Shown here in pieces: positions 31,113 to 64,000 of a stretch of 64,000 nt of DNA (positions within the stretch are counted from its first letter, which is position 1; every line of letters begins with the position of its first letter). Origin of the DNA: Octopus vulgaris (lineage: Eukaryota); the NCBI GenBank assembly GCA_951406725.2, contig OX597814.1, positions 51,026,001 through 51,090,000 on the forward strand, read 5' to 3'. The translations under genes and the position numbers were made by a program. The notes below the pieces were generated by a model, which was not told where the DNA came from, searched no databases, and was given only the letters and a program-made list of their open reading frames with translations.

Positions 31113-31999
31113 ATATTCTGCAATGTTTATCCACTTCCTCACACAAGTGGTTCGTTCTCAATTGTACTGCTTAAAGATCTGGAGGAATCTCCAGTATTAG
31201 CTGCTAGAAGACATTCTCTAGTCACATCATCCCAACAAGTTAACCAGTGCTCACAGTACCTCCTATCACATTTAAACAGCGTTGGCTCATATCTTCACCA
31301 AAGTTGTGTGGCTGAGAAGCTTGCTTCCCAATCAAGTGGCCTTGGGTTCAGTCCCATTGTGTGGAACCTTGAGCAAGTGGGTTGAATAAAGTCTTGTGAT
31401 TGGACTTGGTAGGTGGCAAATGAAAGAAGTCCATCGTGTGTGTATGTGTGCAAGTTTGTTGTGCTTGTCACCCACCACTGCTTGACAACAGGTGTTGGTT
31501 TGTTTACAGCCCTGTAACTTAGTTCAGCAAAAGAGGGAACAACAGAATATATATCAAGCTGAAAAATAAGTACTGAGGTCAGTTTGTGTGACTAAACCCT
31601 TCAAGTGGTGGCCCAGCATGGCCACAATTCAATGACTAAAACAATAGATAAAGACTCTATCACAATCCATGGAAACAACCCAGCAAAAATTTGATCTATA
31701 TGTGTCCAGTTATATTTACCTCATCATGCTAGGAGCTTACAAACATTTTGAGTATTGGCAATCTTCCTTTTCTTTTTTTTTATCTTTTAAACAGAAGAGA
31801 AGGCAGTACCCATGACTCATTCAAGACTGGTGGGATACAGAAAAAAAATTATTCTCAACCCAAAATGCCAGGTGATGGTTTTAAACAAGACAGAAGTGAT
31901 GGCATAATTTGAACTCAGAACACAAGATGAACAGATTACAAGGCATCCAATCTGATATTCTTATGGTCTTGCTGATCTACTGCTCTGGATTAGTACCTC

Positions 32000-39420: not shown

Positions 39421-39822
<402 letters not shown>

Positions 39823-44474: not shown

Positions 44475-44785
44475 CTCTTTTACTTTTTTACTTGTTTCAG
44501 TCATTTGACTGTGGCCATGCTGGAGCACCGCCTTTAAAAATAAATGTGCCCTTTTAAAGCCTAGCCAGGCTCATGGGCCCGGTTTCCATAGTGTATGTGT
44601 TCCCCAGTTGGACAGGACGTCAGTCCATCACAGCGTTACTCATTTTTGCCAGCTGAGTGAACTGGAGCAACATGAAATGAAGTGTTTTGCTCAAGAACAC
44701 AACGCGTCGCCCGGTCCAGGAATCGAAACCACAATCTTACGATCATGATACTGACACCCTAACCACTAAGCCACGCACCTCCACA
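44475..44785 (-). mobile_element. tRNA-derived SINE
   Basis: A box gtggcttagtggtt, B box ggtttcgattcc, tgtgttcttgagcaaaacactt body, same gactgaaacaagtaaaa tail. Confidence 0.75.
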
Positions 44786-45062: not shown

Positions 45063-45068
45063 TTTATT
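45063..45068 (-). promoter_or_regulatory. Candidate poly(A) signal of the IRF-like gene
   Basis: First minus-strand AATAAA downstream of the stop at 45667. A variant ATTAAA lies at 45374-45379. Confidence 0.45.
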
Positions 45069-45093
45069 ACATCTAAAATTATTCTACAAAATT

Positions 45094-45317
45094 TACACTA
45101 TTTATATTTGATGGATATTTGTCCCCATCTTGTTTGTTGTTAACATAACGTTTCAGCTGATATACCCTCCAGCCTTCATCAGGTGTCTTGGGGAAATTTT
45201 CAACCTGGGTTCTCATTCCTAAGGTATTTTTTGATATCATCATTATTATTATTATTATTATTATTAAGGTCACTGCCTGAAATTGAACTCGGGGGTTAGT
45301 AAGCTGTGCTCTTAACC
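45094..45317 (-). mobile_element. Inverted second copy of the same element, head partly truncated
   Basis: Reverse complement of 45337-45558 with scattered substitutions and short indels; the ORF track shows near-identical spurious peptides on opposite strands. Confidence 0.75.
45142..45187 (-). ncRNA. Minimal type I hammerhead-ribozyme-like motif, sense to the IRF-like transcript
   Basis: Minus strand GACAC CTGATGA A GGCTGG-agggtata-TCAGCT GAAAC GTT ATGTT; C-A mismatch at the base of helix I. Confidence 0.55.
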
Positions 45318-45320
45318 CAC

Positions 45321-45590
45321 AGGCATATGGTGTAGTGGTTAAGAGCGCAGGCTACTAACCCCAAGATTCCGAGTTTAATTCCAGGCAGTGACCTTAATAA
45401 TAATAATAACAACAACATCAAAAAATACCTTAGGAATGAGAACCCAGGTTCGAAATTTCCCCAAGACACCTGATGAAGGCTGGAGGGTATATCAGCTGAA
45501 ACGTTGTATTAACAACAAACAAGATGAGGACAAATATCCGTCAAATATAAATAATGTACATAATTCCTCATCTCTTAAATATAGAACTGT
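45321..45590 (+). mobile_element. tRNA-headed SINE-like / Penelope-pLTR-like element carrying a hammerhead-like motif
   Basis: A box TGGTGTAGTGG (45328-45338), B-box-like GAGTTTAATTCC (45371-45382), (AAT)n spacer, then CTGATGA...GAAAC. Confidence 0.7.
45465..45510 (+). ncRNA. Minimal type I hammerhead-ribozyme-like motif
   Basis: GACAC CTGATGA A GGCTGG-agggtata-TCAGCT GAAAC GTT GTATT. Core boxes and helix II present, helix I has one mismatch, helix III is reduced to the palindrome AACGTT. Confidence 0.55.
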
Positions 45591-45666
45591 AAAAATCATT
45601 CTGTCCCAAAATGAAAATTCATTATATTCAAATAAAGTGAAAGAAAAACATTGAAAATGGATATTT

Positions 45667-45719
45667 TCAGTTATTCTTCAAAATTTCTTCCTCAGGTTTT
45701 AACATAGACAAAAATTCCT
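45667..45719 (-). CDS. IRF-like gene, probable terminal coding exon
   Basis: Strong acceptor ctttttgtattcttttacag, phase 1, EEFLSMLKPEEEILKNN then TGA. Chosen on splice signal and phase only, with no homology support. Confidence 0.65.
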
Positions 45720-45814
45720 CTGTAAAAGAATACAAAAAGTTATATAGATATAAAGTAAATATAAAAGAAGGTGAATTAATTTTCACAGAATTATTACAGT
45801 TAAAAGGTGAGTGT

Positions 45815-51090: not shown

Positions 51091-51352
51091 ATATTTTTTA
51101 AGATATTCCTCTGCTAAATGACTTGTGACCGTAATAGATAATAATATACCATTCTCTGAATTTAAATCCGGGTAACATCGTTGACCAACTGACATGAAAA
51201 TATCGCACTGTGGAACAAACTTAGTTAATTCGTGTAATTTCCCATTTAAGAGTTCAGTGAAAATTCGGAAATCGAATATTTTCTCAGGTTTATTTCGTTC
51301 CAGATTCTTAGATTCTTGATTTTCCATTTGACTAATATAAAAAACACGACAC
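51091..51352 (-). CDS. IRF-like gene, association-domain exon (phase 2 to 0)
   Basis: tttgtag acceptor, gtaagt donor. Splicing creates ERSCQCRVFY (cf. IRF RLCQCRVFW), then NLERNKPEKIFDF...PQCDIFMSVGQ...LLSITVTSHLA. Confidence 0.85.
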
Positions 51353-57742: not shown

Positions 57743-58002
57743 ATGTATATGTATGTATGTTGACAGACAGATATATTATGTATTTAAAAGCACAACACGT
57801 CTTTAAATGCTACTCATAGTTTCATATGTAGAGGAATATTTCAAACATATTCATCAGGCACAACCCACATAACATAATGAACTAAAAAAGTTGAAACTAT
57901 TAGTAGCACTTAAAGACATTAATTGTGTCCTTTAAGTAAATAATATTTATCTTTCGCCAGATGGCATACTTTTTTTGTTGAATTTTCTATCACAGAACAG
58001 TG

Positions 58003-58050
<48 letters not shown>

Positions 58051-58149
58051 TATAATTAAATAATAAGGGTAGAAATTGATATTAATCAATTAAAACTATT
58101 GGCTTAGCATATCTAAAAAACCCGAAGATTAAAAATTGTGTTACATACA

Positions 58150-58221
58150 AAATTTAGAGGAATGACCACTAAAGTGGACACCATAAAGGGTGTCCACTTT
58201 AGTGGTCATTCCTCTAAATTT
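58150..58221. repeat. Perfect inverted repeat, 33-bp arms, 6-nt loop
   Basis: aaatttagaggaatgaccactaaagtggacacc-ataaag-ggtgtccactttagtggtcattcctctaaattt. Confidence 0.95.
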
Positions 58222-58319
58222 CTATCACTGTTTGAGTTGCATAATAAGTGGTTTTATCTCTAATTTATATTTTATATATATATACACAAATACACACACA
58301 CACACACAAATATGATGGA

Positions 58320-62689: not shown

Positions 62690-64000
62690 TACAACAGTAG
62701 AAGTTGTAAGTAATCCAAGCTATTGGCAGAGCTGTATCAATAGGCAACTCAGCATACTTAGTTTTAAGTCTACGATCACTGGGTATAGATGCCAATTCCT
62801 CTTCTTCACATATTTTCAAACCAATATTAGATGGAATTTTCATGAAGGGATTTCAAACCCAATCATACTCTTCTGTATTCAATGACAGAAAAAAAAGTTC
62901 ATTTTTCCTTCCAGATTTGTCAAATGTTCAAATACAATAGGTGTTATTTCTTTTATGTATTAAGGGAAACATTTCATAGTTACTACCTTCAGCTCTATTT
63001 TGCCAAATTACAACTTTCTTCTTAAATGAAACCAGCTTATCTGTTGAATGTTTTCATTTCTACTTTGCATACTTGTGTTGACACTATTAAGTTGTGCAAA
63101 TATCTCTGTTAAATATTCCAGCTTGGAAAACCAAAATTCACATTGTAGACCTTCCAAAAAGCAGTCATGTTTTTCTTCTTTAAAAAATGCATGCAATTCC
63201 TTCTGAAGTCCATGTATGTGACATAGCACCTTACCTTTTGAGAGCCATCTGACTTTTGTGTGTAAAAGTAAGTGCTTGTACTGGGAATCCATATCAACAC
63301 AAATTTGTTCAAATAAGCAACACTTCAACGGCCTACTTTTAATATAATTAACCATTTCAACAACTTCGTTTAATACTTGCTTTAACTCAACTGGTACTGT
63401 TTCTGAAACTAGTACCTCCCAATGTATAAAGCAATGAGTAAGTATAACATTAGGATTTTGCTGTTGTATGAGAGATACAAAACCTTTAATAGAGCCATAG
63501 TTGGTGCCTCATTGGTACATATTCCAACATATGAATTCCAGGATAAATTCCATTTTCCGAGGTAGGCAGATAAAATGTCAAAAATATCTTGACTTCTTGT
63601 AGTGAGTGACATTTCTTGGCAACAAAAGAACTGATTTATGGTTTGGTTACCATCAATAAAGCGAATAACTCTAAGTAATTGTACTTTGTCACTAATGTCA
63701 GTTGATTTGTCAACTGGTAGAGCAAATTCTGAGTTCTGAAATTAGTTCTGTACATTTTCCTCTATATCAGCAGATAAATCCATAATTCTCCTATGGATTG
63801 TATTATTTGAGAGCAGAATCTTGCTTATATCTTACTCGGCTTCATCACCTAACATGGTTTTAATCATCTTTCTACAAGAAGGCAAGATAATTGACTTGGC
63901 TAAAGTATGCGATTTCGTTTGTAGTGCAATCATTTTGGCTATCTCAATAGACATGACTTGTGCCTTTTCAGAAGCATTCACCCTTTTTTTTTTCAAAATA
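62690..64000 (-). mobile_element. Decayed hAT transposase (Buster/Charlie, ZBED5/FAM200-like), runs off the window edge
   Basis: VNYIKSRPL...LLLHTKVRWLSKGKVL, LSNNTIHRRI, ALPVDKSTD (cf. ALQLDESTD), GICTNEAPTM; multiple frameshifts. Confidence 0.88.

Follow-up and report, generated by a model that had tools for sequence, protein, structure and literature searches.

A hairpin insertion of apparent Penelope-like origin behind the stop codon of an octopus IRF gene

The IRF gene and the insertion behind its stop codon

The window analyzed here, a stretch of 64,000 nucleotides from the genome of Octopus vulgaris, carries exons of a minus-strand gene that an earlier note on this DNA had called IRF-like. 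The exon at 51094-51351 encodes an IRF-3 domain (32.3 bits in a profile search, above the cut-off), and two exons encoding an IRF DNA-binding domain lie on the same strand at G000:C1:51093188-51096516, 3-6.5 kb past the window end. By these domains the gene is a true IRF. IRF DNA-binding domains were found at three loci of the genome (C10:37529530-37545193, C25:8934847-8936531, and C1:51093188-51096516, all in G000).

An insertion spans positions 45086-45591, its first base lying 75 nt past the IRF stop (Table 1). It is made up of two inverted arms (approximately 45091-45317 and 45337-45561), which are 86% alike with indels counted, and the predicted minus-strand fold of 45063-45667 is a single stem of ~220 bp (-354 kcal/mol). 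The stop codon (TGA, 45669-45667), the inverted pair with its 19-nt loop at 45318-45336, the AATAAA after the second arm, and the ATTAAA at 45379-45374 were all present where the earlier note had located them. Its description of the arms as two hammerhead-bearing elements is replaced here by a single insertion, bounded by one 11-bp target-site duplication (45075-45085 and 45592-45602, one mismatch between the copies) and extended by an extra tail of ~30 nt at 45562-45591. Both arms have the same minority letters at five of five positions, each letter being present in 16/84 to 44/112 family pieces. Given the single duplication around both arms and the letters they have in common, 45086-45591 arose in one event. 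The AATAAA at 45068-45063 is the sole AATAAA on the minus strand from 45667 down to 44700. With the insertion 45086-45591 removed, it lies 81 nt from the stop, which suggests that the element landed just ahead of the gene's own poly(A) signal.

Table 1. Features at the 3′ end of the IRF gene (window positions).
Feature	Position	Strand	Basis
IRF last exon, coding part, TGA at 45669-45667	45667-45719	-	Frame continuous with exon 48899-48818; spliced contigs in 4/4 runs; IRF domains
Target-site duplication, gene-side copy, 11 bp, one mismatch	45592-45602	.	Flank comparison of head-to-head copies
PLE tail, proximal arm only	45562-45591	+	Common to family copies, ending ~45591; loose contig ends 45588-45594; inverted arms ~30 nt shorter
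Proximal arm, read as PLE pseudo-LTR, antisense to IRF mRNA	45316-45561	+	Family comparison
Degenerate tRNA-derived head with A and B boxes spaced as in tRNAs; no tRNA gene	45321-45394	+	tRNA alignment and profile scores
Internal ATTAAA from two minority letters, antisense B box	45374-45379	-	Family column counts
Minimal hammerhead, proximal arm, antisense in mRNA; core start 45470; helix I change at 45508	45464-45510	+	Sequence and column counts
Fold-back loop, 19 nt; distal arm without first 16 nt of head	45318-45336	.	Junction unique, best 40 of 1523 candidates scored
Distal arm, read as inverted, 5′-truncated, tail-less pseudo-LTR copy, sense to mRNA	45086-45317	-	Arm comparison, duplication
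Sense minimal hammerhead; core start 45182; G>A at 45146	45142-45187	-	Family column counts (G in 95/101 pieces)
Target-site duplication, distal copy	45075-45085	.	Flank comparison
AATAAA, likely pre-insertion poly(A) signal	45063-45068	-	6 nt beyond duplication

Transcription of the locus was assessed in unstranded contigs, which give no strand, ends or levels, from runs that were taken as RNA on the basis of exon joins. In four of four such RNA-like runs (three studies, two organism labels), spliced contigs connect 51091 with 48899, connect 48818 with the last exon, and reach 45565. We rejected this shared contig end as the end of the transcript: position 45565 is a repeat boundary at which 31-mers become common to thousands of copies, so that a break in the assembly is expected there (loose ends at 45588-45594). 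Contigs from the tip of the hairpin were found in three of three RNA-like runs from three studies, i.e. (i) 45276-45351 in X2, with one difference and bridging; (ii) 45291-45361 in X7, with no differences and 24 loose letters; and (iii) 45298-45351 in X5, with no differences and below the length for bridging. Among the best 40 of 1523 candidates scored, the stretch across the junction is unique, its closest competitor being at most 90% alike. The distal junction is also bridged by a DNA run with a third organism label (X20), whose coverage excludes 45626-45720. The insertion is not a private variant, because it is common to the RNA-like run of a second organism and the DNA run of a third; this was to be expected anyway from the age of the family. 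The segment 44820-45067 was uncovered in three of three RNA-like runs and covered in X20; this carries little weight, at most that of a weak hint, since the unique sequence expected from the hairpin to the poly(A) site amounts to only ~40 bases. Together, spliced and tip contigs place the hairpin probably within the IRF 3′ UTR, where it would be a good ADAR substrate, edited like any inverted repeat. To this extent the earlier proposal of an mRNA carrying its own long dsRNA stands; the stability-switch role attached to it is not supported (see below).

Several differences between runs were detected. The window and X2 share a 7-nt deletion in the distal arm that the loose letters of the X7 contig lack. 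The X7 contig has G at two neighboring sites where the mRNA strand of the window has A, one of these sites being A in both window arms. Candidate editing is compatible with this pair and is a fair reading of it, from the contig alone. Further A>G rows in the spliced-contig comparison were discarded as editing, since they stem from other family copies. The last IRF exon (45699-45719) is 12 nt longer in X1, X2, and X5 owing to a five-codon duplication and a short deletion that keep the frame, and X7 agrees with the window; this is an in-frame length polymorphism at the IRF C-terminus.

A Penelope-like family with a tRNA-like head

With one arm as query, identities of 91-95% were obtained in the best 40 of 3751 candidates. 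A 24-nt core has 5,595 exact matches in the genome (reversed control, 0). Family copies occurred in 14 of 100 evenly spaced 10-kb stretches, from which a family size of ~39,000 loci is extrapolated (Poisson range 21,000-66,000); exact matches to the core in this 1-Mb sample numbered 0, with 2 expected. Five of the first 29 other loci run upstream into a common coding sequence. In a search with this sequence as query (2914 candidates), 30 loci were selected by their ORF, and in 27 of them arm sequence adjoins the ORF end. A single ORF contains a reverse transcriptase (RT; Pfam RVT_1, 41.7 bits in L039), followed in the translations by a visible GIY-YIG-like domain with a CCHH pattern; the Pfam GIY-YIG model gave no score in two of two stretches holding it. 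The nearest Atlas clusters score 0.97, and their members carry HTH_animal (96%) and GIY-YIG (19-24%). A PDB search returned weak RT matches only. Because the arm follows an ORF with RT and a GIY-YIG-like domain in 27/30 loci, we read it as the 3′ pseudo-LTR of a Penelope-like retroelement (PLE). The repeat library behind PMC13282606 may already contain this family.

Column counts over 118 pieces from 81 loci place the hammerhead within the pseudo-LTR; they omit L061 (self), the duplicates L031 and L075, and the (AAT/AAC)n tract. L075 was also left out of the arm-identity and duplication counts and was retained in the count of inverted partners (29 copies). In L010, L017, and L018, a second element copy lies ~1.55 kb away, with the whole fold-back repeated in L017. 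These doublets are probably local tandem duplications.

The pseudo-LTR begins ~30 nt past the ORF stop with a 74-nt tRNA-like head that has A and B boxes. Six of six heads align best to genomic tRNA-Arg(TCG), with scores of 51-63 vs. ~30 ± 4 for shuffles; the score of the window head was attained by 0 of 200 shuffles, and the tRNA profile gave E = 0.025. The parent tRNA is uncertain, since the panel of 25 tRNA sequences covers just six amino-acid types. ARAGORN reported no tRNA in the window, and Rfam none in the window or in one head; in ten family loci Rfam found neither hammerhead nor tRNA, only microsatellite look-alikes, and no hammerhead in the one head either. Three other tRNA-like heads in the window (44719-44775 and 39650-39707 on the minus strand, 31322-31361 on the plus strand) outscore the PLE head on the tRNA profile and are probably ordinary SINEs.

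Many copies start near the head: 13 of 29 begin within ~20 nt of it, six further upstream, and ten downstream, and in the even sample 7 of 14 copies start within ~20 nt. In ORF-linked copies an imperfect palindrome spans the first base of the head. This hot spot for starting and turning would be explained by Pol III transcripts from the head, by fold-back of the RT product at the palindrome, or by both. The head belongs to the 3′ end of the autonomous PLE, whereas a tRNA-derived SINE has a head that is absent from its autonomous partner and a LINE-derived 3′ end. As far as the letters go, the pseudo-LTR may be a SINE-like unit mobilized by the PLE, with putative Pol III transcription. In the literature listings and passages covered, no PLE was described whose pseudo-LTR has a tRNA head; such a unit may already be cataloged in repeat databases.

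The inverted arrangement seen behind the IRF stop is frequent in the family. Among 29 copies picked by their 3′ part, 21 have an inverted partner, which in 14 is at least 150 nt long. The corresponding number in the even sample was 6 of 14, with a seventh found in the duplication analysis; this rate is the fairer one, as the loci from similarity searches are top-ranked candidates and probably enriched for two-armed copies. Among the first 100 exact matches to the core listed, 13 pairs were minus-then-plus (head-to-head) and none plus-then-minus (tail-to-tail). A tail of ~27-33 nt occurs on one arm only, inverted arms ending at element positions 232-244 vs. 271. Duplications of 10-15 bp bound 11 of 22 head-to-head structures vs. 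1 of 462 mismatched flank pairs, and arm lengths and turning points differ between copies. Three copies that reach the ORF (L076:1262-1397, L084:1118-1345, and L088:1054-1181) have further upstream inverted or palindromic segments, i.e. inversion extends beyond the head. According to the available text of PMC8557442, the 5′ end of PLE insertions is often joined by an inverted, 5′-truncated copy, and one end often bears a tail of 30-40 bp, which the available text of PMC11167929 relates to two RT start sites. With its inverted arm and one-sided tail, the window copy follows this typical PLE pattern.

A possible course of events is as follows. The PLE RT would copy a short RNA or stall at the tRNA-like head. 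At the imperfect palindrome, the cDNA would fold back and copy itself; alternatively, a second priming would make the inverted arm. The doubled unit would then integrate directly ahead of the host AATAAA, generating the 11-bp duplication, and some IRF mRNAs would hold a ~220-bp duplex with at most a generic effect on expression. With thousands of copies that have a sharp turning point and clear duplications, the origin of inverted PLE ends becomes testable by sequence alone.

Hammerhead motifs and competing readings of the hairpin

A sense hammerhead in the distal arm and its antisense in the proximal arm, with a helix I mismatch and a loopless helix III, had been described in the earlier note. 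The two cores start at 45182 (minus) and 45470 (plus), and the family column counts agree with the remainder of that description. Both motifs show the traits of the minimal type: besides the core boxes, they have one additional base following A9, a helix III that is palindromic and lacks a loop, and a short helix I. Helix II is present in both arms. Helix I is broken in both arms; in the sense copy, this is due to the A at 45146, which removes the pair beside the cleavage site. In addition, both arms have U (T) at position 11.1, where 71 of 107 pieces have C, so that a G-U replaces G10.1-C11.1. In the window, Rfam gave no hammerhead match at gathering score. In the part of PMC4209133 available, single minimal PLE hammerheads did not cleave in vitro and dimers cleaved at a low level, and we assign the motif by its traits to this known dimer-dependent PLE type. 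Cleavage of the IRF mRNA by the sense motif appears improbable, because the helix I pair is lost, the motif is fully paired in the predicted mRNA fold, and the mRNA offers no further sense copy as a partner. That a sense hammerhead faces an antisense one is itself a by-product of the insertion mode of the PLE family.

The two arms differ at 13 of 195 columns, giving 5 G-U, 5 A-C, and 3 other mismatches on the mRNA strand, and no bias to pair-preserving changes was found among these 13. Their body identity of 95.0% is the second highest of 22 pairs (mean of the other 21, 92.6; SD 1.5), with the window serving as alignment reference; it is high but within the family range. Two minority letters at the B-box CpG (22/84 and 16/84 pieces) create the internal ATTAAA. 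We are confident in reading the locus as a single head-to-head PLE pseudo-LTR insertion, likely a neutral copy in decay, with a hammerhead that would leave the mRNA uncut. This was the caveat of the earlier note (a neutral insertion with a dimer-dependent motif), which family architecture, decay, and the mutated motif now favor.

Its main proposal was that the duplex masks an active sense hammerhead, and that editing, unwinding or use of the ATTAAA frees cleavage and destabilizes the IRF mRNA. The core nucleotides and helix II are indeed there, the antisense arm would be transcribed first and could sequester the motif, and a 3′ UTR hammerhead is known from mammalian Clec2 genes (PMC6765202, available text). 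Such a Clec2-type role presupposes an intact, foldable motif, and the copy found here has lost one helix I pair to G>A at 45146, carries the G-U at 10.1-11.1, and is buried in the predicted fold. Moreover, cleavage by minimal hammerheads requires another sense copy and stays poor even with one (as reported in the same portion of PMC4209133), the arm arrangement is the family default, pair-preserving changes are not favored, and use of the ATTAAA would delete the sense motif rather than free it. We consider the switch highly improbable. A generic dsRNA element of the same PLE origin, kept since editing, nuclear retention or dsRNA-binding proteins tune the output of the IRF mRNA in the manner of inverted Alu pairs, would make the hammerhead irrelevant. 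Its probable transcription, the high rank of its arm identity, its presence in three labeled organisms, the two A>G candidates in one contig, and the common editing of squid 3′ UTR repeats (PMC9068888, in the text available) would fit such co-option. It is nevertheless very unlikely: G-U pairs are not enriched, the 7-nt deletion of the distal arm is shared by the window and X2 but not by the X7 contig, and at 41 fold-backs per Mb many UTRs would hold one by chance.

Two further alternatives concern the mRNA end and the origin of the insertion. Transcripts could end in or before the proximal arm, at weak signals (45628, 45623, 45510) or at the ATTAAA, the tip contigs being read-through or opposite-strand RNA. 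Unstranded contigs, the stop of the spliced contigs at 45565 in 4/4 runs, and the variant hexamers upstream would agree with a hairpin outside the mature mRNA; the assembly break expected at the repeat boundary and the recovery of tip contigs in three of three RNA-like runs speak against it. We regard this as unlikely, if far from negligible; it touches the UTR only and fits a PLE origin too. A DNA transposon of the MITE kind, with its long terminal inverted repeats, or two SINEs inserted independently would account for long inverted arms, a short duplication, a high copy number, and a tRNA-like head. This explanation is largely refuted and deserves hardly any credence: longer copies extend the arms into the RT/endonuclease ORF, a single duplication bounds both arms, minority letters are common to them, and variable arm lengths and turning points with a one-sided tail are found in place of fixed terminal repeats. 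Returning to the neutral PLE insertion, the consequence for the IRF gene itself is small, as it is one among tens of thousands of decaying PLE insertions.

Fold-backs in the genome and comparison with known systems

In the 1-Mb even sample (L091-L190), 41 fold-backs with arms of at least 80 nt make up 1.9% of bases. They come from ~30 unrelated families, and many adjoin (TA)n; a 3′ UTR hairpin is ordinary in the octopus genome. As the main source of octopus dsRNA, the window PLE family was rejected, for it contributes 902 of 63,756 bases in inverted pairs and 3 of the 41 long fold-backs. A strict hammerhead descriptor matched two of the 41, both from this family (control mean 0.55). A relaxed signature (GAAA plus palindrome) occurred in the outward half of 13 and in the inward half of one (control mean 0.93, maximum 3). 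For four of these 13 the distance to the center is at most 20 nt, and palindromes are to be expected there. The 13, e.g. L100:6053-6623, L133:8470-9671, L146:7936-8763, L147:5566-6013, and L162:705-1209, are probably inverted ends of other PLE families and serve as a lead only. Within an IRF intron, a fold-back resembling the L117/L125/L147 family was seen by eye at ~58040-58270, together with a hammerhead-like core at 57790-57860 on the minus strand. A degraded coding-like stretch at ~62750-64000 (minus strand), likewise intronic, is presumably a remnant of a hAT transposase.

In the available part of PMC5625713, octopus ranks first among 19 species in dsRNA fraction and hyper-editing, unassigned to repeat families; heavy editing of Penelope repeats is described for lizard and frog (also PMC10636886, in part). 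PLE inversions offer a testable source of this unusually high dsRNA fraction. Tentatively, and as a possibility rather than a probability, this PLE family may have acquired a Pol III promoter of tRNA origin within its pseudo-LTR and thereby spawn a Penelope-mobilized SINE, whose short Pol III transcripts yield cDNA that folds back at the head and integrates as a ~230-bp hairpin; with other PLE families it would supply a sizeable share of octopus dsRNA and hyper-editing, as exemplified by the IRF UTR.

Inverted Alu pairs in 3′ UTRs likewise provide a repeat-derived long duplex in a transcript that is a likely ADAR substrate. The same holds for palindromic Harbinger repeats in Xenopus and edited Penelope repeats in lizard (PMC5625713 and PMC10636886, as far as their available text goes); the window hairpin differs from Alu pairs and Harbinger repeats in that it was made in one retrotransposition event, not by two insertions or from a palindromic consensus. 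The Clec2 hammerhead also lies between stop codon and poly(A) signal; in the accessible portion of PMC6765202 it is a discontinuous ribozyme that cleaves in vitro, whereas the window motif appears to be a mutated, duplex-buried transposon remnant.

The closest relatives are the Penelope/Poseidon PLEs, a clade assignment made by eye on seeing no Neptune-type zinc linker. With these, as described in the available sections of PMC8557442 and PMC11167929, the window family shares an RT (here with a putative GIY-YIG-like domain at its C-terminal side), truncation at the 5′ end, an inverted truncated 5′ copy, a ~30-nt tail at one end, and a pseudo-LTR hammerhead. Relative to those sections, the window family is distinguished by the 74-nt tRNA-derived head and (AAT/AAC)n tract ~30 nt past the ORF stop, by copies that are mostly pseudo-LTR only and turn at the head, and by clear 10-13-bp target-site duplications. 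With the metazoan PLE minimal hammerheads in the portion of PMC4209133 at hand, it has in common the two boxes CUGANGA and GAAA, a base left unpaired between positions 9 and 10.1, a palindromic loopless C-G at 15.2-16.2, and a short helix I. Motif pairs on opposite strands, separated by 100-700 bp, are already mentioned there; both window copies differ in their helix I change and the G-U at 10.1-11.1, one of them being sense in a host 3′ UTR.

Short non-autonomous hammerhead units are also known from Schistosoma SM-alpha/Sj-alpha and non-LTR retrozymes (PMC6765202, bioRxiv 10.64898/2026.07.22.740005, PMC7229834). In the available text of these sources, SM-alpha has a Pol III promoter and a PLE origin is proposed for retrozymes; those units are head-to-tail tandems with canonical type I motifs, while the window family is dispersed or head-to-head, has a minimal motif, and carries its head also in the 3′ end of the autonomous PLE. 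A Pol III promoter derived from a small RNA, probably from a captured SINE, is found in the terminal repeat of the TRIMs Cassandra, Helenus, and Ajax (PMC10886601, part of the text). These rely on LTR retrotransposons and have no LTR in common with the autonomous partner, whereas the window unit would be a PLE pseudo-LTR. A tRNA head in the pseudo-LTR of an autonomous PLE would be the PLE counterpart of Cassandra and Helenus. It would also offer a plausible path by which PLEs could give rise to Pol III hammerhead repeats of the SM-alpha kind.
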